Source of the DNA: an uncultured archaeon
Lineage (GTDB): Archaea > Aenigmatarchaeota > Aenigmatarchaeia > Aenigmatarchaeales > Aenigmatarchaeaceae
Reading direction: 5' to 3'
Assembly: GCA_964347265.1 (NCBI GenBank)
Contig: CAYFXV010000001.1
Span: 14,397 to 78,396, forward strand
Length of the DNA: 64,000 nucleotides
Made by a program: the position numbers and the translations under genes. The notes under the pieces were generated by a model that saw nothing but the letters and a program-made list of their open reading frames with translations, did no database searches and was not told the DNA's origin. Below are positions 13,914-56,839 of this stretch, one piece after another (positions within the stretch are counted from its first letter, which is position 1; each line of letters starts with the position of its first letter).

Positions 13914-13940
13914 TGTGCGGAGGGCAGGATTTGAACCTGC
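13914..13940 (-). repeat. 27-nt tRNA 3'-end fragment (T-arm plus 3' acceptor strand), copy 1 of a direct repeat.
   Basis: The minus strand reads GCAGGTTCAAATCCTGC-CCTCCGC-A, a canonical T stem-loop plus 3' acceptor strand. No complementary 5' acceptor (GCGGAGG) lies upstream, so this is not an intact tRNA. Confidence 0.6.
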
Positions 13941-13992
13941 TGAAAAAGACAACCTACGGTTTTCTTCCTTAACCATCTTTCCCTTCATAAAA

Positions 13993-14514: not shown

Positions 14515-14541
14515 TGTGCGGAGGGCAGGATTTGAACCTGC
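14515..14541 (-). repeat. 27-nt tRNA 3'-end fragment, copy 2 of the direct repeat.
   Basis: Identical 27-mer TGTGCGGAGGGCAGGATTTGAACCTGC on the + strand. As with copy 1, no 5' half is adjacent. Confidence 0.6.
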
Positions 14542-27462: not shown

Positions 27463-30239
27463 CTTGGAGATGCTACTGTTCCCGTAACAGTTACTTCAGC
27501 ACCTGCTTTTTGTGTGTCTGTTGCTCCTGGGAATCCAGTTTGGACAATTCTAGCTGCTAAGTCTGTATCTCCTGCTTCCCAACCGGCTATCAATAGAGCT
27601 GTCTTACCTGTTGCGAATTTGTCTGCAACAAGTTTTATCAAACCTGCATTCTCAGGTATTCCTGATGCAGCTCCACATGTATAGTCAGTATGACCCATGA
27701 CTTCAGCTGCTAGCTTGTTAATACAAGGTCCACCAACTATGACTAAATCATAGTTTGATTTGTCTGAGCTTGTTACTTCGGTATCAAGTTTAACAACATC
27801 TGATGTAATTGGTAATACAACATCTGTTGTTATTACGCCTCCAACTCCACCACTTGTTATTACACCTGTTGGAGTCAACACATAAACATTTCCATATGTG
27901 AACACATCTGGATAGCTTATTGTTGCTGAACCTCCAAGGTTTGAAGTCAAGTGATCTGATAGAGTACCGTAAGTTGTCATACCCTTGTATTGTGTTGATG
28001 TTCCTAAGAGCGGAACGTCTGCATAAGCGCTGTCATCTGAATAAAGTGAGGTAGCTATGCTTACTTTGTTGTTTGTACTATCCCATGATACTGGTAGATA
28101 CAACCAATTATGTGTTTGTCCGCCTTGTTGTGCTTCTTCAACTAAGATAAAACCTGTACCATCATACCAAGCACTTGTACTTGTTCCTAGTTTAACTGTG
28201 TAGTTCATAGCAGCACTAGTTCTTCCAACTCTTACTACATAATCAATGTGGTTCTTTGCAAATGTTCCACTTCCATAAGCTCCGTCTTCAACTGGTTCTC
28301 CAATTGCTGTTTCATTAGTCCAAGTTCCTGCTGTAGGACCATATGTAGCAACTGTTGTTGTATTGTCAGCATTTCTAACAAGTCTTATACCTGCAAATCC
28401 TAGTTGTGGATAAATCCAGGTTCCTGCGGTCATTGCACCTGAAGAATAGTTTGTATAGAAATACAAACCACCTTGACCTGTTGTTATTAACTTTGGTGCA
28501 AGGAAAGAGTATTCTCTACCAAGAGGTCCTGGTGTAGTAAAATCTGTGTATGCTGTTCCTGCAATATATCCATCTCCATTTAGGTCAACATTGATAGTTT
28601 TAGATGTATTGCTTATAAGGTAAACTCTATAAATGTTTCCATCAACTATCAAATTTGCTATGGCTCCATTTGAAGTTTGGTTACCTGTTGCTGTAATTGA
28701 ATTTCCTGACTCATCTGTAAATGTAAATTCACCAGTTGCTGCTGTATAAGCTGTAAATACCATTGTGTGGGAGAATCCTCCTTTCTGTATCACGAAAAAG
28801 TCTTGATCAACTGCGCTAATGTTTGCTCCCTCATCAAATACAACATCTCTCCAATCGTTTTCAGTGCCTGATGCTGTTACGGGTGCTGATGCCCATCTCC
28901 ATGTTACTCCGTCTGATGAATAGACTGAGAACATTTGTTCTTCAGCATCTGCAGCATTCTTGTATTTTAAGAACATGTTGTATCCAGAAGGATTGAATGT
29001 TATTGATTGTCTGTTTGCTGCATCTGTAAAATCTGGAATAATACTGTTGAATTTTATGTCAAAGGTTGATGCAAAGGAATCTGCCACTTTATCTCCTGCA
29101 GATAACCACTTATCTAAAGTTGGAGTATAGGTTAAAGAGAATACGGACCAACCACCTGATACACTTGAAGTCATTCCTGATACTAATTCAGATACGACTG
29201 ATGTACCTTTTGTTACTGTTCCTGCAGAACTTACTTTAACTTTGTCTGCGCCTATTGCTAATGTTGCATAATCTGCTGCTCCTGTCTTACCTTGGAAGAC
29301 TTTTATTGCAGCAATTTGTGTTCCATCAGACAAAGTTTTGGTTTCTCCTGCCTTTAATGTAAATGATTCACCATTTACATCCCCAATGGCAGAATAATAT
29401 GTTGATGTTCCTATAGTTTGTGCAGCAACTCCTGTCAAAGTAACTGTATAGTCTTTTCCTTCAGATGTTATTGTTTGTGGTGCTCCTGTTTCTACAGTAA
29501 CTAAATTCTTACCTCCAAGTAAGGTCATAGTTGAGATTGTATCAGTTGAACTACCATATGTGGCATCTGATATAACGAAATCTTTTCCTAAAATACTTAT
29601 AGTTGTACCTTGAATTACAGCCTGCAATAGTGTATTACTGGTAACACCTGATAAAGAGACTGGTGTTGAAAATGTTAGTTTGTATGTATAAAGTGGATAA
29701 GATGCTGGAACTTTAAAGGAAATTCTTGGCGTATTTTCAGTTGTAGGTCTTTCAAATTTTATTTGTGCGCCATTGCTACCTAAATCAGTCTCACCCAATA
29801 AATACAAATACTGTTTATATTGGTAAGCTCCACCAGATGCTGATGAATAAGTTTTGGTTCCTAACAAAGATGGTATATCTGAAGTTGTTATAATTCCCTT
29901 AACATTTTGCGGGTTTGTATAAGGTGTTAAAAATATACCAGATGTTTCTATTTTTGCTCCACCTGTAACACTTTCTCCTGCAATTGTTGTTGTTACATCT
30001 GTGGTTGTCTTAGCATTTGCTGCCATATTAACAGCTACATCAACAGCACCTGCAACATCAGCTGGTGCGGCTCTTGCCCCGATTACAAACAGTGGAAAAC
30101 TAACTGTTGAATCTGTTACTGTTATCATATCTGATATTTTTCCTAATTCTGTTACAGTAGATGCTAACACTGGACTCATTAATGACATTCCTGTCATAAG
30201 TGCTGAACCTGCTATCGCAGCCAATTTTTTAAATTGCAT
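27453..30239 (-). CDS. Large secreted Thr/Ser/Gly-rich surface protein, an S-layer protein candidate.
   Basis: 928 aa with signal peptide MQFKKLAAIAGSALMTGMSLMSPVLAS and low-complexity T/S/G-rich beta-type sequence. It has a strong SD (GGAGG) and a GC-rich leader. The internal + ORF 30001..30264 is spurious. Confidence 0.5.
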   Translation of the reverse strand: MQFKKLAAIAGSALMTGMSLMSPVLASTVTELGKISDMITVTDSTVSFPLFVIGARAAPADVAGAVDVAVNMAANAKTTTDVTTTIAGESVTGGAKIETSGIFLTPYTNPQNVKGIITTSDIPSLLGTKTYSSASGGAYQYKQYLYLLGETDLGSNGAQIKFERPTTENTPRISFKVPASYPLYTYKLTFSTPVSLSGVTSNTLLQAVIQGTTISILGKDFVISDATYGSSTDTISTMTLLGGKNLVTVETGAPQTITSEGKDYTVTLTGVAAQTIGTSTYYSAIGDVNGESFTLKAGETKTLSDGTQIAAIKVFQGKTGAADYATLAIGADKVKVSSAGTVTKGTSVVSELVSGMTSSVSGGWSVFSLTYTPTLDKWLSAGDKVADSFASTFDIKFNSIIPDFTDAANRQSITFNPSGYNMFLKYKNAADAEEQMFSVYSSDGVTWRWASAPVTASGTENDWRDVVFDEGANISAVDQDFFVIQKGGFSHTMVFTAYTAATGEFTFTDESGNSITATGNQTSNGAIANLIVDGNIYRVYLISNTSKTINVDLNGDGYIAGTAYTDFTTPGPLGREYSFLAPKLITTGQGGLYFYTNYSSGAMTAGTWIYPQLGFAGIRLVRNADNTTTVATYGPTAGTWTNETAIGEPVEDGAYGSGTFAKNHIDYVVRVGRTSAAMNYTVKLGTSTSAWYDGTGFILVEEAQQGGQTHNWLYLPVSWDSTNNKVSIATSLYSDDSAYADVPLLGTSTQYKGMTTYGTLSDHLTSNLGGSATISYPDVFTYGNVYVLTPTGVITSGGVGGVITTDVVLPITSDVVKLDTEVTSSDKSNYDLVIVGGPCINKLAAEVMGHTDYTCGAASGIPENAGLIKLVADKFATGKTALLIAGWEAGDTDLAARIVQTGFPGATDTQKAGAEVTVTGTVASPSYS

Positions 30240-30269
30240 TTTTTATTCCTCCTCATTTAATTAAAGTTT

Positions 30270-30317
30270 GCGCGGTGTATGCGCTTTTTCTGGCGCCAAA
30301 AATGCGCTTGCGCGCCA
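30270..30317 (-). promoter_or_regulatory. GC-rich structured leader or operator upstream of the S-layer-like gene.
   Basis: GCGCGGTGTATGCGC and GGCGCCAAAAATGCGCTTGCGCGCC palindromic elements sit about 30-80 nt upstream of the start. They are strongly GC-rich against the ~27% GC background. Confidence 0.45.
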
Positions 30318-30491
30318 AAAAGATTAATACCTCTATTTATTTCTGACGCCATTTTGATTAAGAAATATTGTATAAAGCTAGGATATATAAACTTCTAGAA
30401 ACTGTTTACTGAACTGTTTATCATTGTTTACTTATATATTTTGAAATTAAAATAAGAATTTTTATATCTTCTAATTGTTTCTAAAGGCTTT

Positions 30492-31397
30492 TTATGCCTT
30501 TTTTCCAAATTTCTTCTCTATATAAACCTTGTTTTTCCTACCAATCCTTTCAAGTTTTATAAGACCTCTTTCTTTCAAACTTTTAAGAACTTTTGAAACT
30601 TTTGCTTTAGAATATCCACTATCTTTAACAATTATCTTTTGATTAACGCCATTACCATGTTTCATAACTGTATTAAAAATTATTTTTTCATCTTTTTTTA
30701 ACACAGGTAATATTAATTTTACAGTTTTATTTTTCCAATAAAATTGATAAAAAACTATGACGCCTGCAAATATTATTATGATTGTTATTGTAAAAAATTC
30801 AATCGGAAATTCAGATATAATAACATCTCCTATTTTTTCAAAAGCTACAAAAACATCAATTCTATCTCCTTTTTTAAAATCATTCATTTGCCAGTTAATA
30901 ATTGTTCTTCTGCCATCTGATCCTATTAAAGCATTTTCTGGACTATAAGAATTTTCTACAGGCTCTCTTAAACCAGTTCCTTCTGGAAGCTTAACTAAAA
31001 TAGGAATAATTTCAGTATCACCTCTAAATTTAAAAGAATCTGTAAACAAAAAATAATTATTTCTCTTATTAACTTTTTGATTTGAATTATAAGTTATAAT
31101 GACGTCTGTTCTTTCTGAAGCTTTCATAGTACAAACTATATTTGTTTCTAACATTCCAGGTTGGATTTTACAATCTGCAACAGAATCAACTTTAATGTTA
31201 TCAGGAGAACCTAGAGGTGTGATAAAACTTTGGTCTTGATGATTTACAAATATTAAAGTTAATTTATATTCAACTGTATTATTTTCAAAAATTTCTGCTG
31301 TAACTCCGTATTGATATAATTCTTGCGAAAAACAAGGAACTGAAAATAAAATAAAGAATATTAAAATTAGGATTTTTTTCATTTTATCACTCTTCAC
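30492..31397 (-). CDS. Single-pass membrane protein with an extracytoplasmic N-terminal domain and a cytoplasmic C-terminal winged-helix DNA-binding domain.
   Basis: 301 aa. It has a signal peptide (MKKILILIFFILFSVPCFSQ), a ~190-aa ectodomain, a TM (FFTITIIIIFAGVIVFYQFYW), then FNTVMKHGNGVNQKIIVKDSGYSKAKVSKVLKSLKERGLIKLERIGRKNKVYI (wHTH). Confidence 0.5.
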   Translation of the reverse strand: MKSDKMKKILILIFFILFSVPCFSQELYQYGVTAEIFENNTVEYKLTLIFVNHQDQSFITPLGSPDNIKVDSVADCKIQPGMLETNIVCTMKASERTDVIITYNSNQKVNKRNNYFLFTDSFKFRGDTEIIPILVKLPEGTGLREPVENSYSPENALIGSDGRRTIINWQMNDFKKGDRIDVFVAFEKIGDVIISEFPIEFFTITIIIIFAGVIVFYQFYWKNKTVKLILPVLKKDEKIIFNTVMKHGNGVNQKIIVKDSGYSKAKVSKVLKSLKERGLIKLERIGRKNKVYIEKKFGKKA

Positions 31398-31824
31398 CTC
31401 TCATGAAAACTATTCCACCAGCACCAGCTGCTGCAAGTCTATGCATCATATTTGAAATTGAATTCAAAATTGATTGAGCTTCACCAACATCTAAATTGAA
31501 TTTTTCTGGTTCTAATATTTCTATAGCAGATGGTCCATATTCAATAGCAATCTGTGCAAGGTTATCAAACTTTTTAGATATTAAATTAACTTCACATGTT
31601 ACAGAATATCCAACCTCAACATTTTGAATTGGTGTTTCAACTCTCTTAGTTTCCCCAAAACTTTTTTTATAAATTTTTACTCTATTGTCTCTGTCAAGTT
31701 TGTTAACCAAAGACTCTAGTGCATCTTTTGCTACGTTTTCATTTATTGCTAAAGCTTCGAACATAACCCAAGATTTAAACCATCCTTCTCTAACTTTTTC
31801 GTTTGCTTCTTCCTCGCTTATCAT
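31387..31824 (-). CDS. Hypothetical protein.
   Basis: 145-aa ORF. It overlaps the upstream gene by 11 nt. Family not recognised. Confidence 0.4.
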   Translation of the reverse strand: MISEEEANEKVREGWFKSWVMFEALAINENVAKDALESLVNKLDRDNRVKIYKKSFGETKRVETPIQNVEVGYSVTCEVNLISKKFDNLAQIAIEYGPSAIEILEPEKFNLDVGEAQSILNSISNMMHRLAAAGAGGIVFMRGEE

Positions 31825-31863
31825 ATAAGAATTAATTTCTTTCTTAAAGCTTTAAATTTGTTT

Positions 31864-32895
31864 CTAAAAGTGTTCTGGCACCCATCTTTTTCCAAAAATA
31901 GGTATTTCCTCTCCACATTTAGGACATTTAAAATCTTTTTTCAATGAGAATTTTTTAACACCTAAAATTGTTCTTTCAATAACAAGGTTTCCACAATTAT
32001 GACAATAAGTATTTTCCAACTTATGATTATGAACATTTCCTAAATAAACATATTTTAGTCCTTCTTTTTTTGCTATTTCATAAGCTTTTTCCATTGTTTT
32101 GATAGGTGTTCTAGGCAAATCTGTCAATTTATGGGTTGGAAAAAATTGAATTAAGTGAAACGGTGTTTTGTCTCCTAAGTTATCAAATATCCATTTACAA
32201 AGTTTTTTCACATCTTCCATATTGTCCCCAACTTTAGGAACTATTAAATCTGTTATTTCAATATAAATTTTGTTTTTCTTGTAAGCTAACAAAGCATCAA
32301 AGATTGGTTCTACTTTAGGAACGCTTGAAAATTCATTGTAAAACTTTGGATTTGCAGAACCTTTTAAATCAACAACAGCTGCGTCCAAATATTTTGATAT
32401 TTCTTTTATTGCTTCTGGAGAAGTATAACCATTTGTAACAAACATGTTATAAAATCCATTTTTTCTAGCTATTTTTGCAGTATCATAAGAAAATTCATAA
32501 AATATTGTTGGCTCTGTATAAGTATAAGAAAAGCCTTGAACACCAAATTTCTTTGCTAAATCAATTAATTGCTCAGGAGTATGATCTTGTCCAATAACAT
32601 TTGTCCATTCTTGTGATATTCCATAATTACAACAAAACTTACATCTAAAATTACATCCAACAGTAGATATAGATACGGTTCTAGAACCTGGAGCAAACAT
32701 GTATAATGGTTTTTTTTCAATAGGATCTACTGCTACTGAACAGAGTTTTCCATAAACAAGAGAATATAATTTGTCTTTAATGTTTTTCCTAACTCTACAA
32801 AATCCTACTTGATTTTCTGCTATAATACAATTTCTAGCACATAAACCACATTTAATAGCGTTTTTAATTTGTTTATAGAACATAGCTTCTTTCAT
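31864..32895 (-). CDS. Radical SAM enzyme of the COG1180 type (PflA/AmrS-like activating enzyme).
   Basis: 343 aa with CGLCARNC at the N-terminus and the radical SAM motif CNFRCKFC (CX3CX2C). Confidence 0.65.
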   Translation of the reverse strand: MKEAMFYKQIKNAIKCGLCARNCIIAENQVGFCRVRKNIKDKLYSLVYGKLCSVAVDPIEKKPLYMFAPGSRTVSISTVGCNFRCKFCCNYGISQEWTNVIGQDHTPEQLIDLAKKFGVQGFSYTYTEPTIFYEFSYDTAKIARKNGFYNMFVTNGYTSPEAIKEISKYLDAAVVDLKGSANPKFYNEFSSVPKVEPIFDALLAYKKNKIYIEITDLIVPKVGDNMEDVKKLCKWIFDNLGDKTPFHLIQFFPTHKLTDLPRTPIKTMEKAYEIAKKEGLKYVYLGNVHNHKLENTYCHNCGNLVIERTILGVKKFSLKKDFKCPKCGEEIPIFGKRWVPEHF

Positions 32896-32933
32896 AATAA
32901 CTTATATAATTTTCAAATATTTTATAGTATTAT

Positions 32934-33007
32934 GCCCCAATAGCTCAGTTGGCTAGAGCGACTGTCTCGTAAACAGTAGGTCGGCGGTTCAAATCCGCCT
33001 TGGGGCT
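32934..33007 (+). tRNA. tRNA-Thr (anticodon CGT).
   Basis: Manual fold: acceptor GCCCCAA/TTGGGGC, anticodon stem ACTGT/ACAGT with loop CTCGTAA, T-loop TTCAAAT. Confidence 0.8.
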
Positions 33008-33101
33008 ACTTTAACCAATTCTCAAAACTAGAAAAGATTTAATAATATTGTTCTTTAATTCTTGAAAATAATTAAAAAGTTAGGGTTCTAATAATTATAT
33101 T

Positions 33102-33899
33102 GTGAATGAAATGTCAGAATTGAAAGTCTTACAAATTGAGACAACTAATCTTTGTAATTCTCATTGTGTGTTTTGTGTTCATGATAGAATAAAAGAATAT
33201 GAAAATATGAGTGATGAACTATTTAAAAAAATATTGAATGACGCCAAAAAAATTGAAACAATAAAAAGAATAATCCCCATGATGACTGGCGAACCACTTA
33301 TGGATAAAAAATTTATAAATCGTCTTAAATTGATAAACGGGATATTACCAAACAAACAAATAGAAGTATATAGCAATGGCTCTTTTCTTACTTCTAAAAT
33401 CATAAAAGAATTAGCTTCTATAGAGAATTTGACGATGTTTTTTAGTATTAATGGTACTAGCAAAAAAACTAGAAAAAAATTAATGGGTTTAGATGATTAT
33501 GATTATGTAGTCAAAATGGTAAATTTATATGCTTTAACTGAAAAACCATTTAGAACAATATTTGTGGCTCACCCTTCAGTTAAAAAAGAAGAATTTCATA
33601 ATTTTATAAGAAGTTGGAGCAATAAGGCTTTGATTATCCCCTATGCCAATTTTATAGGAGAAAAATACAGAAGTGATACAATTGAAAAAACTTGCGTTAG
33701 AGCAATTAGTCATATGACTGTTATGTGGAATGGAAAAGTCAATCTTTGTTGTTTTGATGCTTTGGGAAAAGTCATTTTTGGAGATTTGAACACACAATCT
33801 ATTAAAGAAGTTTGGAATTCTAAAAAAAGACAATCTTATGCGAAAGCACATTTAAATGGAGAAATAATAGAACCTTGCAACATTTGTGTTTACATATAA
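33102..33899 (+). CDS. Radical SAM protein with a C-terminal Cys-rich SPASM/twitch-like extension.
   Basis: 265 aa. LQIETTNLCNSHCVFCV contains CX3CX2C. The C-terminal cysteines are CCFDALGKV...EPCNICVYI. Internal minus ORFs 33179..33463 and 33576..33851 are spurious. Confidence 0.65.
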   Translation: MNEMSELKVLQIETTNLCNSHCVFCVHDRIKEYENMSDELFKKILNDAKKIETIKRIIPMMTGEPLMDKKFINRLKLINGILPNKQIEVYSNGSFLTSKIIKELASIENLTMFFSINGTSKKTRKKLMGLDDYDYVVKMVNLYALTEKPFRTIFVAHPSVKKEEFHNFIRSWSNKALIIPYANFIGEKYRSDTIEKTCVRAISHMTVMWNGKVNLCCFDALGKVIFGDLNTQSIKEVWNSKKRQSYAKAHLNGEIIEPCNICVYI

Positions 33900-34080
33900 G
33901 AAGGCGACATATAAAATTTATATAAGCTTATAAAAGCTATAGTGACAGAATGGAAAAAAACAAAAATTATTTTTCGTTTCTAATTCAATTTTAAACATAA
34001 TATTATTAATAATATATTACTTTGCTTAATCTATACGGCTTTGAAAAAGATTTAAATAGATGCTATAAAAATCATATAAA

Positions 34081-34389
34081 GTGGATGAAATGGATTGGAT
34101 AACCTTTGTTAAAAAAGAAAATGTTAAAAAGGCTGAAGAAAAATTAAGAAGTGATTTTGATATAGCAGCCAAACAAAGCATAACAGTCAGAGATGCAAAG
34201 TCATTGGACATAGAAAAAGATGGAAGTTTCATTTTAATTAATGGAACAGAAGAGGGAATAGAAAAATGTAAAGAACTAATAAAAGAATTTGTTGAAGAAA
34301 TTGATGAAGATTATTTGAATAAAGCAGAAGAAAAAATTAAAGAAGAAGAAGAAAAAGCAGCAGAAGCATTTGGTGGAATATTGGGATAG
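34081..34389 (+). CDS. Acidic hypothetical protein.
   Basis: 102 aa with a Glu/Lys-rich C-terminus. No recognisable motif. Confidence 0.35.
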   Translation: MDEMDWITFVKKENVKKAEEKLRSDFDIAAKQSITVRDAKSLDIEKDGSFILINGTEEGIEKCKELIKEFVEEIDEDYLNKAEEKIKEEEEKAAEAFGGILG

Positions 34390-34391
34390 AA

Positions 34392-34649
34392 ATGATGGCT
34401 ATATTTACATTAGGAGCAGACGAAATAAGAATAAAACAAATGGAAAATATAGCTGAAGCTTGGGGATTTGCTGGAAAATATTCTAACACAGAAAATTTAT
34501 TGATTGATGCCAGAAAAAAGAAGTTTGATTCTATTTTAGTTATAGACCGTGAGGCTTTCGAAGATAAAGCCAAAATAGAACTTAATAATCTTGGTGTAGA
34601 AATAATTAGTTTAAAGGATAAGAAAGTTTTAGAAAAAAAGATTTTTTAA
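34392..34649 (+). CDS. Hypothetical small protein.
   Basis: 85 aa. Its start is 3 nt after the previous stop, so the two are probably co-transcribed. Confidence 0.35.
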   Translation: MMAIFTLGADEIRIKQMENIAEAWGFAGKYSNTENLLIDARKKKFDSILVIDREAFEDKAKIELNNLGVEIISLKDKKVLEKKIF

Positions 34650-34686
34650 TAAAATATTAATTTAATTCTAACAATTAGTTTTTTAT

Positions 34687-34758
34687 GCGCCGATAGTCTA
34701 ATGGTTAGGACATCAGCTTCCCAAGCTGACGATCTGGGTTCGAATCCCGGTCGGCGCA
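34687..34758 (+). tRNA. tRNA-Gly (anticodon CCC).
   Basis: Manual fold: acceptor GCGCCGA/TCGGCGC, anticodon stem TCAGC/GCTGA with loop TTCCCAA, T-arm CTGGG-TTCGAAT-CCCGG. Confidence 0.8.
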
Positions 34759-34812
34759 TCATTCTTGACGGGATGAGAAACTGATATAAATCAGGAATAT
34801 AAGCTAATTTAT

Positions 34813-35286
34813 ATGAAGAAACCATTTGAAATAGGTTTTAGTTTTGGTCTAACTTCTGGAATAATAACAACTCTTGGGTTAATGGTAGGTCTGCATTCTG
34901 GTACTCACTCAAAACTTGCAGTTATCGGAGGTATACTAACAATAGCAGTAGCAGATGCATTTTCAGACTCATTAGGTATGCATATTTCTGAAGAATCTGA
35001 AAAAAAGAAAACAAAAGATATATGGGAATCAACAATTTCTACTTTTCTATCAAAATTCTTTTTTGCATTGACATTTATTATTCCGATTTTATTACTCGAA
35101 CTTTTAACAGCAATTTTAGTAAGTATAGTTTGGGGTCTATTAATGATAGGTATTCTTAGTTTTAGGATAGCTAAAAAACAAAAAGAAACAGCGTGGAAGG
35201 TAGTTGCAGAACATTTGATTATAGCATTGGTAGTTATAGTTATAACTCATTATGTGGGTGATTGGATATCATTAACATTTGGTTAG
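34813..35286 (+). CDS. VIT1/CCC1-family membrane protein (iron/manganese transporter-like).
   Basis: 157 aa. GLTSGIITTLGLMVGLHSGT...AVADAFSDSLGMHISEESE resembles the VIT family (DUF125). Confidence 0.55.
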   Translation: MKKPFEIGFSFGLTSGIITTLGLMVGLHSGTHSKLAVIGGILTIAVADAFSDSLGMHISEESEKKKTKDIWESTISTFLSKFFFALTFIIPILLLELLTAILVSIVWGLLMIGILSFRIAKKQKETAWKVVAEHLIIALVVIVITHYVGDWISLTFG

Positions 35287-35309
35287 TCGAATCCCGGTCG
35301 GCGCATCAT
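35287..35309 (+). repeat. 23-nt direct repeat of the tRNA-Gly 3' end (att-like).
   Basis: TCGAATCCCGGTCGGCGCATCAT is identical to 34740..34762 (the tRNA-Gly T-loop/acceptor plus 4 nt downstream). It directly follows the VIT gene's stop. Confidence 0.65.
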
Positions 35310-35767
35310 AACAAATGAACTATTATTATGAAAATTTCGGAGCCAATAGCATGTAAAAGAAAACTTGGTAAGAATGATTTGCTTCTATAATTAATAGTTC
35401 CAAAAACTATTCCACCTATTGCTGAATAAGGAATTTCAAGAAATGGTTTTCCAATATGTGCTAGTGTATAGGGTATATCTTGAAGTACTATTGACCATTT
35501 ACCAAATCTTTTAGATAAGCCAAACAATAGAAATCCTCTAAAAAACAATTCTCCGACAAACATTCCAAAAAACCTATCAAATATACCTATAGGTGTTAAT
35601 GGTCGAGTTAAATAATATGCTCTAAAATCTGATAAGTTTGCTGCAAAAAATGATAGAGGGAGAGATAAAATCAATAACAAAAGAATTGTTAATAAATCTT
35701 TTCTATCTATAGAATTTAAACCAATATTGTTTTTCATATAAATTCTATTATTTATTAATTCTAACAT
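35306..35767 (-). CDS. CPBP-family intramembrane metalloprotease (CAAX protease/Abi-like).
   Basis: 153 aa with motifs VGELFFRGFLL (EExxxR), YTLAHIG and FLLHAIGSE. Confidence 0.65.
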   Translation of the reverse strand: MLELINNRIYMKNNIGLNSIDRKDLLTILLLLILSLPLSFFAANLSDFRAYYLTRPLTPIGIFDRFFGMFVGELFFRGFLLFGLSKRFGKWSIVLQDIPYTLAHIGKPFLEIPYSAIGGIVFGTINYRSKSFLPSFLLHAIGSEIFIIIVHLL

Positions 35768-35786
35768 AAAGATAAATAGTGTTTAA

Positions 35787-36437
35787 ATGAATGTTATCGA
35801 AGATTTATCAGAATTTCTTAAAATCTCTAAAGATAATGTGATCTCAAAAATGAAAAAAGGAGTTTTTTTAGTAAAGGATGATTGGATAAAAGCAAACCCA
35901 AAAACAGAAGAAGAAGTAATCAAATTTTACAAGAATTGTAAAAACTATTTATTTGATTTAGCTGCTTGGCACGAACAACCATATAAAAAACAATGGGACT
36001 TACAATTGATAGAAGTTGTAAAAAAAATAGAACCGAGTGTAAAAACTATTCTGGATTATGGTTGTGGTATAGGTTCTAATGGGTTTTTATTTCATGAGGC
36101 AGGATTTAATGTAACATTAGCAGATTTAGATTCTTTTACTTTAGATTTTGCTAAATTTATAATTAAGAAATATGGTCTGCCTATTAAAGTAATAGAAGTT
36201 GATAAAGAAGAAGTAAAAAGTAAATTCGATGTTATTATTTGTCTGGATACACTTGAACATATTTTAGATCCAAAAACACTTTTAGAGAAATTATCTCATT
36301 ATTTGAATCCTGAAGGAAAAATTATTCTAACAATTACTGAACGTGATGAATATCGTCCTATGCACTATGAAATGAAAAGCGATTTCTGGGAATATATGGG
36401 AAATTTAGTTAGAGAAAATAAAATCTTATTATTATAG
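35787..36437 (+). CDS. Class I SAM-dependent methyltransferase.
   Basis: 216 aa. LDYGCGIGSNGFLFHEAGFNVTLADLD (motif I), then ICLDTLEH. Confidence 0.8.
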   Translation: MNVIEDLSEFLKISKDNVISKMKKGVFLVKDDWIKANPKTEEEVIKFYKNCKNYLFDLAAWHEQPYKKQWDLQLIEVVKKIEPSVKTILDYGCGIGSNGFLFHEAGFNVTLADLDSFTLDFAKFIIKKYGLPIKVIEVDKEEVKSKFDVIICLDTLEHILDPKTLLEKLSHYLNPEGKIILTITERDEYRPMHYEMKSDFWEYMGNLVRENKILLL

Positions 36438-36444
36438 ATTTCGA

Positions 36445-37104
36445 TTATTCTTTCTGTATTCTTTTTTCCAAAAGTAGATAAGAAATTTTTTCATCAACTA
36501 TTATTTCTCCAATATGTTTACAAACAATTGATGTATCTAAAAAAACTTTAAATCCTTCTTTCTTTGCATTTTCACAAAAAGTCATATCTTCATTTAATTG
36601 TTCTACAATATCTGTATGTATATTTTTAAACTCAAAAAAAGTATTATAACCCCTTTCTTTTAATTTTTCAAAAACCTCTTTTTTAACTAAAACACAACCA
36701 AAACCAACAATATCAACTTCATGAAGGGCATTCAGTTTTACAAAATCAAGTAGTTTATATTTGCCTTCTTTATTTTTCATACAAACAACTGGCCTATATG
36801 GTGGTTTTCTTTGAAAATAAAGTGCTGAAATTATATCCTTATCTTTAGCGAATAAGTTGTCTAAAGTATTAGGAGGAATTAGCATATCTGAATCAATAAA
36901 CCAAAGATAATCTGGATTTTCTAATAAAGCTTTTTCAACAAGCTCATTTCTAGCTGCATCAAGTGGGAAACGTTTTGAAAAAACTAACCTTATATCATAC
37001 TTAGTTATGTTCTCATTTATTATGTTTAAAAAATTTAGAAAAAAATCACTATTAATAGTATTTGTTAGCGGTATGCAAAGGGAAACTCGTTTTTTGTTGT
37101 TCAT
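36445..37104 (-). CDS. GT-A-fold glycosyltransferase-like protein.
   Basis: 219 aa. The N-terminal CIPLTN...D..AARN and a DSD (DxD) motif suggest a nucleotide-sugar transferase fold. Confidence 0.4.
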   Translation of the reverse strand: MNNKKRVSLCIPLTNTINSDFFLNFLNIINENITKYDIRLVFSKRFPLDAARNELVEKALLENPDYLWFIDSDMLIPPNTLDNLFAKDKDIISALYFQRKPPYRPVVCMKNKEGKYKLLDFVKLNALHEVDIVGFGCVLVKKEVFEKLKERGYNTFFEFKNIHTDIVEQLNEDMTFCENAKKEGFKVFLDTSIVCKHIGEIIVDEKISYLLLEKRIQKE

Positions 37105-37193
37105 CTTAATCGTCTATTAAAAATAATATTAAGAGAAATATTTAAATTGTTAAATAAATTACCAATTTATTTAAAGGAAAACAACAATTTAGT

Positions 37194-37670
37194 ATGGCTG
37201 AAAACACTTATTTAATATTTCATCCAACAAGATTAGCATATTTTCTCTGGTATCTTATTGCAATAATTATAATAATTGTTGGTATTTTATCATTTTTTGA
37301 TATTATACCAATTTCAACTTTAATTGCAGATTATAATACTTATATTTTGATTTTCTTCAGTGCTGCTGGGATTATTTTAGTGGGAATTGCCGAAATTTTA
37401 AGAAAAACTGACAAATATGCAATAACAAATTTTAGAATTATCGAGAAAAAAGGTATAATAAATATTGAGGAAGACTCTATATACTGGGAAAAAGTAGCTA
37501 ATTATTCTTTAAGTCAAAATTTGGTGGATAGGATTTTTAAGATTGGCACAATAAAATTGTGGAGCATGGGTGGTGGAGGAGAAGGAATAGAACCTGAAGT
37601 AGTAATTAAAAAGGCTCCTCATATTAAAAAAATAAGATTTCTTTTGGATAAGTTGATACAAAAAAGATAA
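37194..37670 (+). CDS. Membrane protein with a bacterial-PH (YdbS/DUF304-like) domain.
   Basis: 158 aa with two N-terminal TM helices, then YAITNFRIIEKKG...IGTIKLWSMGGGGEG. Confidence 0.45.
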   Translation: MAENTYLIFHPTRLAYFLWYLIAIIIIIVGILSFFDIIPISTLIADYNTYILIFFSAAGIILVGIAEILRKTDKYAITNFRIIEKKGIINIEEDSIYWEKVANYSLSQNLVDRIFKIGTIKLWSMGGGGEGIEPEVVIKKAPHIKKIRFLLDKLIQKR

Positions 37671-37706
37671 TTCTTATAAATATTTGTTGTTTTAATAAAA
37701 TAAGAT

Positions 37707-37779
37707 GGGCCAGTGGTCTAGCGGCTATGACGCTACCTTGACAGGGTAGATATCGCAGGTTCGAGTCCTGCCTGGCCCA
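37707..37779 (+). tRNA. tRNA-Val (anticodon GAC).
   Basis: Manual fold: acceptor GGGCCAG/CTGGCCC, anticodon stem CTACC/GGTAG with loop TTGACAG, T-arm GCAGG-TTCGAGT-CCTGC. Confidence 0.8.
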
Positions 37780-37793
37780 CTTAGAGTGATAAA

Positions 37794-38225
37794 ATGAAAG
37801 CTTGGAAAATTATAGTAGCTGGAATTGTGTTTGCAATAATAGCTCAAATAATACACTATGTAGAAGCAATTGCTACAATGGGTTTCTACATGGATCCAAC
37901 ATATTTCACAGTTTGGAGCAAAATAATGATGCCAACAGAAGGTGCACCGCCAGCTGAATTCTATTACTTTTCAATTGGATTTGGAATAATAACAGGAATA
38001 ATTTATGCTGTGGTTTATGCAATGGTTAAAAAAAGTGTACCAGGAAAAACAATTGTTAAACAGGGCCTATATTTCGGTTTCCTCTTGTTTCTACTAGGAA
38101 TACCTCATACTTTGGCAATGTATTTAATAATTAACTTGCCAACATTATTACTATTTTACTGGACAATAACAGGCCTTATAATTAATTTAATAGGCGGAGT
38201 TATTATTGCTGGAATAGTTAAGTAG
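37794..38225 (+). CDS. Polytopic small membrane protein (hypothetical).
   Basis: 143 aa with four predicted TM helices. Confidence 0.4.
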   Translation: MKAWKIIVAGIVFAIIAQIIHYVEAIATMGFYMDPTYFTVWSKIMMPTEGAPPAEFYYFSIGFGIITGIIYAVVYAMVKKSVPGKTIVKQGLYFGFLLFLLGIPHTLAMYLIINLPTLLLFYWTITGLIINLIGGVIIAGIVK

Positions 38226-38233
38226 TGTTTTAA

Positions 38234-39496
38234 ATGAAAATTTTTGCCGATTTACATTTACATAGTCATTATAGTAGGGCAACTTCTAATAAAATGAATA
38301 TAGAAAATCTGGAAAGATATGCAAAAATTAAAGGAATAAATCTTTTGGGAACCGGAGATTTTACACACCCTTCTTGGTTAGATGAATTGAAAAGAAGCTT
38401 AATAGAAGTTGGAAATACTGGTTTATTTCAATTTAAAGACAAAAGTATATATTTCATGCTTCAAGCAGAAGTTTCAAATATTTATAATCAAGATGAAAAA
38501 ACAAGAAAAATACATAATGTTATTTTAGCTCCTAGTTTTGAAATTGTAGAACAGATAAATGATTTTCTTAAAAACTATGGTAAATTGGCAAGTGATGGAA
38601 GACCTATTTTAACTAATATAAACTGTGCAGAACTTGTAGAGAGTTTGATTAATATTTCCAGAGATACAGTAATAATACCAGCACATATATGGACTCCTTG
38701 GTTCTCTTTATTTGGAAGCAAATCTGGTTTTGATTCAATAGAAGGATGCTTTAAAGATAAGACAAAACACGTATTTGCTTTAGAAACAGGCCTTTCTAGT
38801 GATCCTGCAATGAATTGGAGACTATCTTCATTAGATAATTTTGCATTGGTTTCAAATAGTGATAGTCATAGCCCATGGCCTAATAGATTGGGTAGAGAAT
38901 TAAATGTTTTTGATATTGAAATGAAATATAAAGACATAATAAATGCGATTAAAAATAAGAATCCTAAAGAATTTCTTTATACTGTTGAAGTTGATCCTTC
39001 TTATGGTAAGTATCATTGGGATGGTCATAGAAATTGTAATGTTTGTTTGAATCCTAAGGAATCAAGAAAATATCATGATATTTGTCCTGTTTGTGGAAAT
39101 CCTTTAACAATAGGTGTGGAACACAGGGTTGAAGAACTGGCAGACAGAAAAGAAGGTTTTGTTCCTAAAAATGCTATTGTTTTTAAAACTTTGCTCCCAT
39201 TATCAGAATTAATAGCACATATCTATAATACCCAACCTTTTTCTAAGAAAGTCTGGACAGAGTCTACAAAATTAATAAAGAGCTTTGACTCTGAATTAAA
39301 TGTTCTATTAAATGCTAATAGAGAAAATTTAAAACTTTTAGTTAATGAAAGACTTGTTGATTTAATAATAAAAAACAGAGAAGGAAAATTAAAGGTTCAA
39401 CCTGGATATGATGGAGTTTATGGAAAATTAATATTAGATGGAAAAATTTCTATTAAACAACCTCAAAAAAGAATTGATAGTTATATTAATAAATAA
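38234..39496 (+). CDS. PHP-domain phosphoesterase with a C-terminal Zn-ribbon (archaeal TIGR00375-like family).
   Basis: 420 aa. N-terminal MKIFADLHLHSHYSRATS is the PHP His motif. Its Cys clusters are CNVCLNP...CPVCGNP. Confidence 0.6.
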   Translation: MKIFADLHLHSHYSRATSNKMNIENLERYAKIKGINLLGTGDFTHPSWLDELKRSLIEVGNTGLFQFKDKSIYFMLQAEVSNIYNQDEKTRKIHNVILAPSFEIVEQINDFLKNYGKLASDGRPILTNINCAELVESLINISRDTVIIPAHIWTPWFSLFGSKSGFDSIEGCFKDKTKHVFALETGLSSDPAMNWRLSSLDNFALVSNSDSHSPWPNRLGRELNVFDIEMKYKDIINAIKNKNPKEFLYTVEVDPSYGKYHWDGHRNCNVCLNPKESRKYHDICPVCGNPLTIGVEHRVEELADRKEGFVPKNAIVFKTLLPLSELIAHIYNTQPFSKKVWTESTKLIKSFDSELNVLLNANRENLKLLVNERLVDLIIKNREGKLKVQPGYDGVYGKLILDGKISIKQPQKRIDSYINK

Positions 39497-39545
39497 TAAA
39501 AATGAGAGTAGAGAAATGTTTCTCTACTTTTAAAACAGCGAAAAA

Positions 39546-40514
39546 CTACTTGCCTGAAACTGTTACGCTAGCTGTTCTTTCAACCCAATAACCATAGTCT
39601 GCTGTTACTTTGATCTGATCTGACCTAAATGTTGAAGGTATGGATGTTACAGTTACATCACAAGTTATTGTTGCTTCACCTTTTGTTAATTCAAATGTAT
39701 CGGCACAATCTTCCTCACCACTCCATCCAGGTACATCTGATACATCTATGTCTATCCAGTTTAATTGTGTTTCTGCATCAATTTCATAATCAGTTCCATC
39801 ATAAGCAACTGCACCTTGTAGGTAAACTGTTCCACCACCTACGCTACTAGCTTTTATTTGTAGTGTAAATGTTTGATCACCATCAACAATTACATTTGTT
39901 GGTTTTACTGTCACATATAATGCAACAGGACCTCCTGTTGAAGTGAATGAATTTTGATTTAATGATCTTCCTGCTGCTTTTGCTGCATCAGCTTCTGCCT
40001 CATCATAAATCCATACATTACCTGTAACAGTAGTTGTGTAATCGTAATAAAGTCTTCCTATGAATACATCAGTTCTTGATATTCCTGGATCAATAGCTGT
40101 AGGTGAGGTTAAATACCAGTTTACTGTCTTCTCGTCTGCTGGGACATCTCTAACTGGGTCATACGGATCCATATCCTTTCCCATAGTTTGATGAGTTGTA
40201 GTGGTAGTACCTCTTTCAGTCCAATATAAACCACCGTCTGGTGAGAAGTCACTTCGAAGAGCTGAACCTTGCAACACAGCTAATGCACTACCATCTGGTA
40301 CACTTGAACCACCTTTGTTAATAATTGTCATTGTAATTTTTGCTGAACGGTTGTTATAAACTTCTGTATTATCTATAGAGAATTCTTCTACTACTAAACC
40401 GCCTCCAGCAAAAACTGTAGGTGATGTTATCCATGGTATTGATATTGGTCCGCCCTGAATACACCCTGCTATAAAGATTATAGCCAGCGTAGCTAACAAA
40501 ATCTCTTTTTTCAT
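39546..40514 (-). CDS. Secreted lipoprotein-like protein, paralog A.
   Basis: 322 aa with signal peptide plus lipobox-like LAIIFIAGCIQG. It is a paralog of 40623..41582 and shares ETQLNW, the KAAGR block and overall layout with it. Confidence 0.5.
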   Translation of the reverse strand: MKKEILLATLAIIFIAGCIQGGPISIPWITSPTVFAGGGLVVEEFSIDNTEVYNNRSAKITMTIINKGGSSVPDGSALAVLQGSALRSDFSPDGGLYWTERGTTTTTHQTMGKDMDPYDPVRDVPADEKTVNWYLTSPTAIDPGISRTDVFIGRLYYDYTTTVTGNVWIYDEAEADAAKAAGRSLNQNSFTSTGGPVALYVTVKPTNVIVDGDQTFTLQIKASSVGGGTVYLQGAVAYDGTDYEIDAETQLNWIDIDVSDVPGWSGEEDCADTFELTKGEATITCDVTVTSIPSTFRSDQIKVTADYGYWVERTASVTVSGK

Positions 40515-40622
40515 TTAAAAATCACCTTTTATTTCTATCATAAAATTGTAAGGCGTATATTTATAGATTTAGGTTAGGGAGTTGTACATTGCTTACACTA
40601 CAAAAAATTTGCATTTTAGAAT

Positions 40623-41582
40623 TTATCTTCCTTGAACTGTTACAACTGCTTCTCTTTCTTGGTAATAACCATAGGTCACTAATACATTGAGTAGATATGA
40701 TTTAAAAGTTGATGGTGCTGAAGGTACTTTAGCTTCACAAACTAGTGTCATGGATCTTCCTCCAAAAACTTCCTGATCACCAGTACATTCTGCAACATTT
40801 AAATTTGGAGCATCCACAGCCACATTAAGCCAGTTTAATTGTGTTTCTGCATCTAATGCTAAATCAGAAACTGTTGCACTATCGTAATCTATGTCTTTAT
40901 TAAAAATTGTACCAGTTGCAGTATTAGTTATATCTATGTTAAAAGTAAATTCGGTTTCACCTTCATACAGTATTATTGGATTTGGAGTTAATCTAACATT
41001 TACACCAACTGGTCCTGAAATTGGTGTGAAACTTGATGTTCTCAGGGCTCTTCCTGCTGCTTTTGTTGCTTCTGCTTCCGAATCTGTATAAACCCATATG
41101 TTACCATTCACACCTGATGAATAATCACTGTAAACTCTTAGTATGAATGTGTCTTGTCTTGTTTGACCTGGTGTTATGGTCGGAGAAACCAAACTCCAGC
41201 TAAATCTTTCCATATCAGGTGGAGTGCCTCTTACAACGTTTTCAGGATCCATATCTTTAGAAAAATATCTTATTTCACTTCTATCATCACCTGCATCCCT
41301 ACCATACCAATATTTACCAGTTGTATCATCAAGATCAATATTTGAACCTGTTAAATAAACTAGAGCTGAATCATTTGCAACTGTTGTTCCTCCCCTGTTT
41401 TCAATTTCTCCTACTACTCTTACTGTTCTATTACTATAAACAGGAGTTGGATCTGCTGTAAAACTTATTATTTCTAAACCTATGCCTCCAAGTCCTACTG
41501 TTGGCCCCAATCCTGGTATTTCTCCTATACATCCTGCAACTAAAGCTATTGCTAAAATTGATATTAAAATTTTGGATTTCAT
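40623..41582 (-). CDS. Secreted lipoprotein-like protein, paralog B.
   Basis: 319 aa with signal/lipobox LAIALVAGCIGE. It has the same domain layout as paralog A, including TKAAGRALRTSSF versus AKAAGRSLNQNSF. Confidence 0.5.
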   Translation of the reverse strand: MKSKILISILAIALVAGCIGEIPGLGPTVGLGGIGLEIISFTADPTPVYSNRTVRVVGEIENRGGTTVANDSALVYLTGSNIDLDDTTGKYWYGRDAGDDRSEIRYFSKDMDPENVVRGTPPDMERFSWSLVSPTITPGQTRQDTFILRVYSDYSSGVNGNIWVYTDSEAEATKAAGRALRTSSFTPISGPVGVNVRLTPNPIILYEGETEFTFNIDITNTATGTIFNKDIDYDSATVSDLALDAETQLNWLNVAVDAPNLNVAECTGDQEVFGGRSMTLVCEAKVPSAPSTFKSYLLNVLVTYGYYQEREAVVTVQGR

Positions 41583-41689: not shown

Positions 41690-42952
41690 TTATTGTTTTG
41701 CTATAGGTGCATTGTGGATAAGTAAGTCATTTTCACCAAAGTAATTATGAGCTTCAGTCTCTATATTATAAACATAACCTGTATATGCGTTTATTTTATT
41801 TGAAACTAGAGAAACTAAAACTGCTTCTTCATTTAAAGATGGGAATACTTTATGATTCCATGTAAACCAGTTACCATTATAAAAATAAATATCCCAAAAT
41901 CCAAAATGAGATGTTTTTTCTTTAACTTTTGTTTCAACTTTTTTACCATCTTTATATCCTATTACTGTATCACCAACTTTCAAATCTTCAATTCTTTTAA
42001 ATCCTTCAGGCGTTAAAACCTTAAAACCCTCTATTAAACAACCTCCACCGCCTCCAAAAGGTGTGGGAGTTGTAGGTTTTTCTCCTTTTACTGTTATAGG
42101 AATATGGTTGTAAAGAGTGTATTTATAACCAATATCCATATTTAAAGATTTAATACTCATTATGGTTTGTGGAGCAGTGGAAAATTCACAAATTGTTGGA
42201 ACAGCCCTACCTTTTATAAATTTCAAATCTTTATTTAATGTAAAGGTCCCTCCACTCGACGTATAATTGGGACAACTACTTATAATTATATTGTTTGGAG
42301 CAGTGAATTTTATATCTAAATTATCAAAAAAACCATCTCCCCTATTATTATAATTAATATACATATCATATCCTGATAGATCCGCTATAAATGGCTGTGA
42401 TTCAGAAAAAGTTAAATAAACATTTAATGGGCCTTTTGCAAAAGTAGATTGAATAGGAATATCTTGAAGTGTTCCTTCTACTTCTCTTACAACATATTCA
42501 GATTCTGATAAAACTACTATATCTTGAAAAACAGAACTGGTCGCAGAATATGCTACAAAAAACTTTATTATACATCGTCTATCTATCTCTGATTCTTCTG
42601 ATTTCCATCTCCAATGCCACATACAAGTTTGGTTTGCTTTTAATGTTCCAGATGCATCAGTACCACAATCGTCTTTTAGAAATTTATTAGTAGCAACATC
42701 AAAACAAGGATAATCATAAACTATTAAATTAACATTGTTTAAATCATAAAGTTGCTTATTCCTTAATTCAAAAAAAACTTGAACTTCTCTTCCTCCTCTA
42801 ATTTCTGAAGAAGTTGTTTCTGCTTTTATGTAAAGGTCTGGACTTCCTGGATCAATTAAAAAAGTCTCTGGTTGTGGTAGTGATGGAAATGGAGGTAGAA
42901 TCGAACATAAAGAAATCAGAACAATGGGAAGTAATAAAAGTAAATATTTCAT
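41690..42952 (-). CDS. Secreted protein with a C-terminal Hint domain (hedgehog/intein-like, bacterial-intein-like type).
   Basis: 420 aa with a signal peptide. A Gly5 linker is followed by CLIEGFKVLTPEGFKRIEDLKVGDTVIG (intein block A), KTSHFGF (block B, TxxH), YNIETEAHNYFG (block F) and NDLLIHN (block G, terminal HN). Only 6 non-nucleophilic residues (APIAKQ) follow. Confidence 0.7.
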   Translation of the reverse strand: MKYLLLLLPIVLISLCSILPPFPSLPQPETFLIDPGSPDLYIKAETTSSEIRGGREVQVFFELRNKQLYDLNNVNLIVYDYPCFDVATNKFLKDDCGTDASGTLKANQTCMWHWRWKSEESEIDRRCIIKFFVAYSATSSVFQDIVVLSESEYVVREVEGTLQDIPIQSTFAKGPLNVYLTFSESQPFIADLSGYDMYINYNNRGDGFFDNLDIKFTAPNNIIISSCPNYTSSGGTFTLNKDLKFIKGRAVPTICEFSTAPQTIMSIKSLNMDIGYKYTLYNHIPITVKGEKPTTPTPFGGGGGCLIEGFKVLTPEGFKRIEDLKVGDTVIGYKDGKKVETKVKEKTSHFGFWDIYFYNGNWFTWNHKVFPSLNEEAVLVSLVSNKINAYTGYVYNIETEAHNYFGENDLLIHNAPIAKQ

Positions 42953-52155: not shown

Positions 52156-52269
52156 TGGGCGAGGTGAGATTTGAACTCACGACCTCCAGTATTTACAGAA
52201 CGCAGCCACAAAAAATGACTAACGTCATTTTATAAGACTGGCGCTCTAACCAAACTAAGCTACCCGCCC
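52156..52269 (-). tRNA. Intron-containing tRNA. The anticodon is TAT (tRNA-Ile) if the intron is at the canonical 37/38 position.
   Basis: Reverse complement: acceptor GGGCGGG/CTCGCCC, D-arm GCTT..GAGC, anticodon stem CCAGT/ACTGG enclosing CTTATA plus a ~39-nt insert (with hairpin ATGAC-GTTA-GTCAT), T-arm GTGAG-TTCAAAT-CTCAC. Confidence 0.65.
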
Positions 52270-56834: not shown

Positions 56835-56839
56835 TAAAC

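Follow-up and report, generated by a model that had tools for sequence, protein, structure and literature searches.

The locus described here lies in a 64-kb stretch of DNA (the window; 64,000 nucleotides, GC content ~30%) from contig CAYFXV010000001.1 of an uncultured archaeon of the Aenigmatarchaeota (assembly GCA_964347265.1), and comprises a tRNA-Gly(CCC) gene, a metal-transporter gene of the VIT1/CCC1 family (VIT), and a displaced second copy of the tRNA 3′ end. Positions 28813-41286 of the window (12.5 kb) are identical to a stretch of contig WVZI01000016.1 in the metagenome-assembled genome GCA_011772535.1, whose proteins are labelled Candidatus Aenigmarchaeota. The tRNA-Gly(CCC) gene is intact and occupies 34687..34758 on the plus strand (Rfam RF00005, 71.1 bits, full model 1-71). 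It was also called by ARAGORN, at the slightly over-wide limits 34686-34760, and the Rfam limits were used. A repeat scan found an exact 23-nt direct repeat, TCGAATCCCGGTCGGCGCATCAT, with copy 1 at 34740-34762 and copy 2 at 35287-35309, both on the plus strand. The repeat consists of the last 19 nt of the tRNA (T55 to A73) followed by the 4-nt flank TCAT, and identity between the copies ends sharply on both sides (preceding base t vs g, following bases tcttgac vs aacaaat).

The two copies are separated by 524 bp, made up of a 50-nt leader (34763..34812, plus strand) and the VIT open reading frame (ORF; 34813..35286, plus strand, 157 aa), so that the insert totals 547 bp with VIT as its sole gene. 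The TAG stop of VIT directly abuts copy 2, and bases 35306-35308 of that copy (TCA) form the TGA stop of a convergent minus-strand gene for a CPBP/Rce1-like, MrtA-like intramembrane protease (35306..35767; Pfam PF02517, with orthologues; 143 aa in the source annotation, where its start is at 35737). This arrangement had been described in a sequence-only reading of the locus, and its positions, its composition of 19 nt plus 4 nt and its overlap with the CPBP stop proved correct in every detail. Searching both strands of the window for TCGAATCCCGGTCGGCGCATCAT recovered just the two described copies, with no further match at ≤3 mismatches, and 100 dinucleotide shuffles of the sequence produced none. 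In an all-against-all scan of the 64 kb, only four exact repeats of ≥23 nt were present, and two of these four are tRNA 3′ ends.

The VIT ORF scored 37.3 bits against Pfam PF01988 (gathering cut-off 28.1), which predicts an Fe/Mn transporter. Homologues with 70-92% identity are very numerous across archaea and bacteria, and the close ones are named VIT1/CCC1 by their sources. The same protein neighbourhood is recorded on three contigs of 50-200 kb. The GC content of the insert is 0.309, against 0.301 for the window. A TATA-like A/T-rich box, GATATAAAT, lies in the leader ~20-25 nt upstream of the VIT ATG, which suggests that the gene brings a putative promoter of its own and would be transcribed into a nearly leaderless mRNA. 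The nearest VIT relatives lie in quite different gene neighbourhoods, and homology at the DNA level to VIT genes from four further contexts (L001/L024, L004 and L006) extends only from 34778/34801 to ~35286, that is, from -35 to the stop codon ending at 35286. Because this homology is restricted to the promoter region and the ORF, the transferred unit appears to be an essentially bare, self-expressing gene.

Unoccupied site in related genomes

Orthologues of the CPBP protease are 62-87% identical overall, and those at 87% identity led to three short metagenome contigs (L009, L010 and L011) carrying the same region. Their flanks show 88-91% DNA identity to the window, and gene order is kept: tRNA-Thr, one further gene, genes of 99-102 aa and 84-85 aa, tRNA-Gly(CCC), VIT, CPBP, a methyltransferase and a glycosyltransferase gene, bPH_2, and tRNA-Val, where the gene after tRNA-Thr, VIT, and the methyltransferase-glycosyltransferase pair are variable between genomes or present only in the window. 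The orthologous tRNA-Gly of each contig runs straight into the CPBP stop codon (...GGGTTCGAATCCCGGTCGGCGCATCAaaccaaatgaac), with a single copy of the repeat and without VIT. The BLAST breakpoints of the window against these relatives lie at 34761 and 35287, and a 22-nt stretch of L009 can be aligned with either copy in the window; against each of the three independent contigs, the breakpoints fall exactly at the repeat. VIT is also absent beside tRNA-Gly at the more distant CPBP loci, where the corresponding position holds a 200-nt spacer (L012-L014) or purA (L015, L016 and L020). A CPBP-alignment search of JGI metagenomes added 6 loci, all more distant, of which none was a filled site.

Since the close relatives have a one-copy site without VIT, the 547 bp is, on the evidence of these alignments, an insertion in the lineage of the window, bounded by a duplication of the tRNA tail in attL/attR geometry. 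Such a geometry had been proposed from the window alone, and the alignment of orthologous loci bore it out, as VIT is an insertion relative to L009, L010 and L011. The pair of VIT and repeat is not common to all relatives, and the repeat is far beyond chance similarity. Copy 1 is the identity block of attL. Copy 2 corresponds to attR and to the displaced original 3′ end of tRNA-Gly with its 4-nt flank, as the same bases form the tRNA 3′ end itself in the empty site. The present tRNA-Gly can be regarded as a regenerated target, with a resident 5′ part and a 3′ part that would derive, from the T-loop on, from the insert, and the CPBP gene, judging from its synteny with L009-L011, is the resident gene that adjoined tRNA-Gly before the insertion.

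Recurrent tRNA-tail repeats and tRNA-bounded tracts

The same geometry was found at other loci. In L001 (GCA_011773475.1), a 2372-bp insertion at tRNA-Asn(GTT) (3571-5942) is bounded by an 18-nt tail repeat starting at A57, and VIT lies just beyond the repeat copy. The sister genome L024 has tRNA-Asn 37 nt before VIT with no repeat (3892-4001) and represents an exact empty site. The L001 insertion encodes a TFIIB paralogue, an HTH_45 protein and two small ORFs, with no integrase. Its interpretation as a decayed virus or plasmid was rejected: the TFIIB is 80-95% identical to ordinary TFBs of DPANN archaea, and L109 carries the same TFB/HTH_45 genes at a tRNA-less site, and therefore the cargo looks cellular rather than viral. 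In L012, an intron-containing tRNA (4303-4428, 38.8 bits, detected by Rfam only) is followed by a 69-aa ORF and then by a 22-nt tail copy starting at T54.

Two further units have tRNA-like repeats at both ends. In the window, the repeat scan found a 27-nt sequence resembling a tRNA 3′ end, GCAGGTTCAAATCCTGCCCTCCGCACA, on the minus strand at 14515..14541 (upstream copy, with no adjoining tRNA 5′ half) and 13914..13940 (downstream copy). The copies, 601 bp apart, lie between the genes for FBP aldolase/phosphatase and aldehyde dehydrogenase, and bracket one 153-aa ORF (13993-14454, minus strand, no Pfam match) together with a motif of ~45 nt (13941-13992). Each contains a full T-arm, the acceptor strand CCTCCGC, and then ACA. 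A hidden tRNA was rejected as their explanation: Rfam at E up to 10 found none, and there is no GCGGAGG 5′ strand on that strand in the window. No tRNA with the acceptor of the 27-mer was found in the window. Possible readings of the pair are tails that were displaced, a cassette that was relocated, or a split tRNA of which these are the 3′ halves. In L025 (4478-5015), the 16-nt sequence CCTGCCCTCCGCATTA, with the same acceptor sequence as the window 27-mer, is present in two copies, spaced by 517 bp, that enclose one 134-aa ORF directly after the VIT stop; the syntenic locus L106 has no tRNA-like sequence at the insertion point of this cassette. The L001 and L012 cases fit simple integration into a tRNA gene, while the window 27-mer and L025 cases do not.

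At least three of the other bracketed units are single intact ORFs of 0.3-0.6 kb. Across the cases, the left ends of the repeats cluster in the T-arm (positions 49-57) and the right ends fall 1-4 nt past the tRNA, and repeat lengths vary (18, 22 and 23 nt, and 27 nt in the tRNA-less pair at 13914/14515).

The conserved ~45-nt motif, ATGAAGGGAAAGAWGGTTAAGGAAGAAAACCGTAGGTTGTCTT, immediately precedes tRNA-tail fragments, except in L105, where it precedes the VIT promoter, and it follows unrelated small ORFs in different genomes. Copies were located at 13941-13992 (minus) in the window, at 3994-4036 (minus) in L012 with a degenerate second copy, at 278-312 (minus) in L001, and at 1965-1992 (plus) in L105. 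Over 761 kb of loci, only three exact matches to its 12-mer core exist. The motif contains a small hairpin (AACC-GTA-GGTT) and bears a faint likeness to the variable-arm region of class II tRNAs.

Genes and tracts bounded by tRNA genes were also seen around the insertion. A radical-SAM/SPASM gene follows tRNA-Thr(CGT) in the window (33008-34038), an MFS transporter gene takes this place in L009 and L010, and homology to those contigs stops exactly at the last base of tRNA-Thr, 33007. L009 and L010 are 100% identical over ~3 kb, from inside tRNA-Thr to tRNA-Val, and only 86-89% identical outside it. The tRNA-Thr of L009 (3619-3692) is chimeric, combining a window-like 5′ half (GCCCCAA) with a T-arm and acceptor (TTGAGGC) like those of L010 (tRNA-Thr at 3145-3219), which leaves a C4·A69 mismatch. 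As read from these identities, the comparison indicates a recent recombination tract bounded by tRNA genes. Right after tRNA-Val(GAC), the window carries a membrane-protein ORF of 143 aa (37791-38231) that is absent in L010 and represented in L009 by its last ~50 nt; it is flanked by an imperfect 15-16-nt repeat, AGTGATAAAATGAAA / AGTGTTTTAAATGAAA, which contains the start codons of both genes. Between CPBP and bPH_2, the 1415 bp at 35751-37165 with the methyltransferase and glycosyltransferase genes correspond to 9 bp in L009-L011; this block has no adjacent tRNA, and no clear flanking repeats could be defined for it. To judge from these patterns, crossovers inside tRNA genes are evidently frequent in this population. 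The suggestion of the sequence-only reading that tRNA-associated rearrangement is recurrent is borne out by the tail repeats at L001, L012, L025 and the window 27-mers, together with the tRNA-bounded tracts.

Origin of the insertion

Our leading reading, which we hold tentatively, is site-specific recombination of the tyrosine-integrase type at tRNA-Gly by a 547-bp circle, with the enzyme supplied in trans. The circle would have held one copy of the 23-nt tRNA-Gly tail, the promoter and the VIT ORF, and would have recombined conservatively with the chromosomal tRNA-Gly(CCC), with crossing-over within the T-loop or immediately past it. The incoming tail would then complete the tRNA and form attL, and the resident tail with the CPBP stop would be pushed 547 bp downstream and form attR. 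Both resident genes would stay intact, and the cell would gain a ready-to-express metal-transporter gene. The recombinase, located off the insert, would have been provided by another element or by the host, and the VIT unit would be a captured cassette of one gene. The predicted attB is tRNA-Gly followed by AACAAATG, and the predicted attP is …TTTGGTTAG + 23-mer + TCTTGACGGG….

A regenerated tRNA and a displaced fragment at the ends are the signature of integrase-made islands used by Islander, which cites the classification of Williams 2002 (PMC4383910). An enzyme of the tyrosine-integrase type is suggested because the identity block spans the T-loop to just past the tRNA, the gene is regenerated and the old tail is displaced (PMC4383910). 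The variable block lengths and clustered starts fit att identity blocks and argue against both a fixed staggered cut and random illegitimate joints. There is experimental precedent for action in trans: in vitro, purified Int-pTN3, an archaeal integrase, cuts a 762-bp spacer flanked by two direct tRNA-Leu repeats out as a circle and inserts it again (PMC5495485), and elements with split integrases are excised by the integrases of related elements (PMC8371274). The insert, like several sister units, consists of one intact gene and shows no debris, and for that reason action in trans is favoured over the decay of a larger element. Between the decayed remnant and the mini cargo cassette that had both been envisaged from the sequence alone, the pattern leans slightly towards the cassette.

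Several observations weigh against this reading. No recombinase and no other functional ORF was found in the insert, and no recombinase was found in the window among 20 ORFs scanned with Pfam, in the Pfam table for 28.8-41.3 kb, or by a box-II motif scan of all 73 ORFs; these searches covered 64 kb of the genome, with hidden Markov models applied to part of the window ORFs. The earlier remark that the segment has no integrase was correct and extends to the scanned ORFs of the window. No attP-type junction, circle, or second copy of a cassette with the same ends was seen. The TCAT flank is identical in both copies, which, for an incoming element, would mean either that it had previously resided at this site in a relative or that the match is fortuitous (1 in 256). 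Simple integration fails for the 27-mer and L025 units, which have tRNA-like repeats at both ends and no intact tRNA. Viral contigs yielded neither the VIT gene nor a relevant att match: no VIT relative was found in IMG/VR, and exact-string searches with three tRNA tails gave two matches, both in unrelated contigs (one of ~60% GC), while the third tail had none, and a viral origin was rejected. Across 80 GTDB genomes VIT is not generally linked to tRNA genes, with a tRNA at ≤500 nt in 5 of the 80 loci and bracketing tRNA repeats in 0 of 80, and VIT was rejected as a generally tRNA-linked mobile gene; its association with tRNA genes is confined to this archaeal clade, as far as these loci indicate.

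All 13 ARAGORN tRNAs within ±4 kb of VIT in the 80 loci (L023-L102) share the VIT strand, a pattern that may reflect replication-strand bias.

The insert might instead be what is left of a larger integrase-bearing virus, plasmid or island at tRNA-Gly, from which internal deletions spared only VIT and both att copies. We regard such decay as rather unlikely, though it would predict the missing integrase, and the att geometry and the empty site are equally expected from it; DPANN genomes are, moreover, strongly streamlined, and degenerate elements and stray partial tRNAs occur beside tRNA genes in other streamlined genomes (tycheposon remnants, 10.1101/2020.12.28.424599). Against it, no debris is present: the 524 unique bases are promoter and ORF, with the stop touching attR, homology to free-standing VIT copies covers nearly the entire insert, and its GC content does not differ from the host's. 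Single intact ORFs of similar size also make up at least three other bracketed units, and deletions ending exactly at the att border would have been needed repeatedly. The main rival that dispenses with an integrase is homology-facilitated illegitimate recombination, in which tRNA-Gly-VIT DNA from a related cell, anchored by homology within the tRNA, was joined illegitimately at the T-loop at its other end, duplicating the stretch between without a dedicated recombinase. This explanation accounts naturally for the identical 4 flanking bases, and it agrees with the role of tRNAs as recombination boundaries here (the L009/L010 tract, the chimeric L009 tRNA-Thr, the gene replacement at the tRNA-Thr 3′ end) and with the position of VIT in L024, 37 nt past tRNA-Asn without a repeat. 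Joints formed in this way should scatter, whereas the independent cases have their left ends in the T-arm at 49-57 and their right ends 1-4 nt past the tRNA; the TAG|TCGA joint lacks clear microhomology, and no donor with a tRNA-Gly-VIT arrangement was found in the VIT neighbourhoods searched, including the 80 GTDB loci. We consider this course unlikely.

Recombination between the direct repeats would restore exactly the empty site of L009-L011, and the order of events could in principle be the reverse, with an ancestral tRNA-VIT-fragment arrangement from which VIT was lost through the 23-mers, or with the fragment as a leftover of a second tRNA-Gly. The distant relatives with CPBP and tRNA-Gly (L012-L014; L015, L016 and L020) also lack VIT, however, and the nearest VIT sequences are at other loci. 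No constraint acts on 19 nt of copy 2, and the flanks have diverged by ~10% from L009, yet the copies still match at 23 of 23 positions, and the ancestral structure would still need the same kind of insertion to arise; the reverse order is accordingly judged improbable. Transposition, with a transposase or casposase cutting 23 bp staggered at the tRNA end and repair duplicating the target, would explain a perfect duplication that includes non-tRNA flank bases. Casposons target tRNA 3′ ends, with duplications of 14-15 bp, and to our knowledge no target duplication of a DNA transposon is as long as 23 bp. Transposon ends were ruled out by the lack of terminal inverted repeats at 34763 and 35286; the 23-mer and its surroundings contain no inverted repeat, neither a transposase nor Cas1 was found, the insert ends have no further copies in the window, and the repeat length is inconstant between cases (18, 22, 23 and 27 nt), which together make transposition very improbable. 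A retroviral-type primer-binding site was rejected on inspection, as the fragment is in tRNA sense with no CCA complement. Finally, chance similarity, a functional motif such as a terminator, or an assembly artefact has a negligible probability in our view. The source is a metagenome-assembled genome, but the repeat is the tRNA's own tail, it arose in 0 of 100 shuffles, and 23 nt is well under assembler k-mer sizes; the protein neighbourhood is recorded on three contigs, and the breakpoints against three independent contigs lie exactly at the repeat.

In a wider proposal, DPANN archaea (Aenigmarchaeota, perhaps others) would swap single-gene cassettes of 0.3-0.6 kb with tRNA-tail recombination sites, through a recombinase acting in trans at T-loops, and sometimes place double-tailed cassettes at non-tRNA sites, in an integron-like shuffling built on tRNA genes, which would have escaped notice so far because island finders drop candidates without an integrase or under 2 kb. 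Units compatible with it are VIT at tRNA-Gly, ORF153 between the 27-mers, ORF69 in L012 and ORF134 between the CCTGCCCTCCGCATTA copies in L025, with the ~45-nt motif before several fragments. The L025 and 27-mer cases and the shared motif hint at such a cassette-exchange system, the existence of which we nevertheless consider quite doubtful.

Comparison with known systems and other features

As in tRNA-integrated islands and prophages, the locus has an intact regenerated tRNA at one end, a displaced direct 3′ fragment at the other, an identity block from the T-loop to past the 3′ end, and an empty attB in relatives. Unlike them, the insert has no integrase and holds one gene in 547 bp, its composition is that of the host, and its cargo is a widespread cellular gene. 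Cis-mobilizable elements (CIMEs) of streptococci are flanked by att sites, lack recombination and transfer genes, and presumably rely on a related element's recombinase to move. They share with the insert the att-type repeats on both sides and the absence of such genes, but they occur in bacteria, span several kb and can be recognised as derivatives of integrative and conjugative or integrative and mobilizable elements; the insert is archaeal and consists of a single cellular-type gene with no known parent element (no viral or element relatives were found, and its matches are to free-standing VIT only). Integron cassettes likewise hold one ORF of ~0.5 kb, have a recombination site at the stop codon and no recombinase of their own, and occupy a fixed chromosomal site. 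The insert differs from them in lacking an attC-like imperfect palindrome and IntI, in having its own putative promoter, and in sitting at a tRNA tail, and the likeness is one of logic only. It differs from DNA transposons and casposons in having no terminal inverted repeats and no transposase or Cas1, and in repeats that range from 18 to 27 nt across cases.

Elements trapped in tRNA genes through suicidal integrases of the SSV/pTN3/pT26-2 type are archaeal, and their excision and re-integration in trans is possible (PMC8371274, PMC5495485). Capture of the SSV type, however, leaves int(N) and int(C) halves at the borders, where the insert has 50 nt to the left and 0 nt to the right of the VIT ORF, too little to hold them, and the att sites of these elements mostly lie over other parts of the tRNA (PMC8371274, PMC5495485). 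No element of this type is known from DPANN archaea. Tycheposons and their remnants in Prochlorococcus resemble the present case in the streamlined genome, the nutrient or metal cargo, the tRNA integration and the scattered partial tRNAs (10.1101/2020.12.28.424599). They differ in being kb-sized with integrase and replication modules, and their integrase-less pieces are degenerate with unclear borders, whereas the borders of the insert are exact (10.1101/2020.12.28.424599). The insert is best described as a tRNA-targeted island in function, minus the defining integrase, and is closest to the bacterial CIMEs and the integrase-less Prochlorococcus remnants; it differs from those in its DPANN archaeal host, its single cellular gene of half a kb, and its exact borders. 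A review of archaeal tyrosine recombinases does not mention DPANN (PMC8371274), and all that a study of Aenigmarchaeota notes is a phage integrase encoded on the same scaffold as a TFIIB gene (PMC8407114).

Little is known of how genes are acquired by DPANN archaea, whose genomes are tiny and which rely on other cells. The locus provides a filled and empty pair exact to the base pair, in which a ready-to-use metal-transporter gene was added at a tRNA with its neighbours undisturbed, and the similar one-gene units, together with the tRNA-bounded tracts and replacements, suggest that tRNA tails are the main sites at which these genomes exchange genes. The insert fails Islander twice because an integrase and a length of ≥2 kb are required (PMC4383910), and small events of this kind are systematically overlooked because island finders make these two demands. 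If a recombinase did act in trans, the locus would represent a new and simple route of archaeal gene capture; if none did, it would be a tidy, ordinary relic of an integrated element.

Some features elsewhere were noted in passing. An intron-containing tRNA of 114 nt at 52156-52269 (minus strand; Rfam, 59.9 bits) was missed by ARAGORN. The Nre gene in L025 (5103-6420) is apparently interrupted by ~1.3 kb that include a 411-aa ORF and may represent an intein or homing endonuclease. In the window, a 420-aa secreted-looking protein (41690-42952, minus strand) has a weak C-terminal domain resembling Hint/intein-splicing domains (Pfam E = 1e-5, below the gathering score). A 103-nt exact repeat (56390-56492 / 56836-56938) spans the 5′ end of each of two neighbouring pilin/archaellin-like genes, and a 24-nt repeat (39756-39779 / 40830-40853) lies in two adjacent paralogous genes for 320-aa lipoprotein-like products; both look like tandem paralogues, perhaps with gene conversion.

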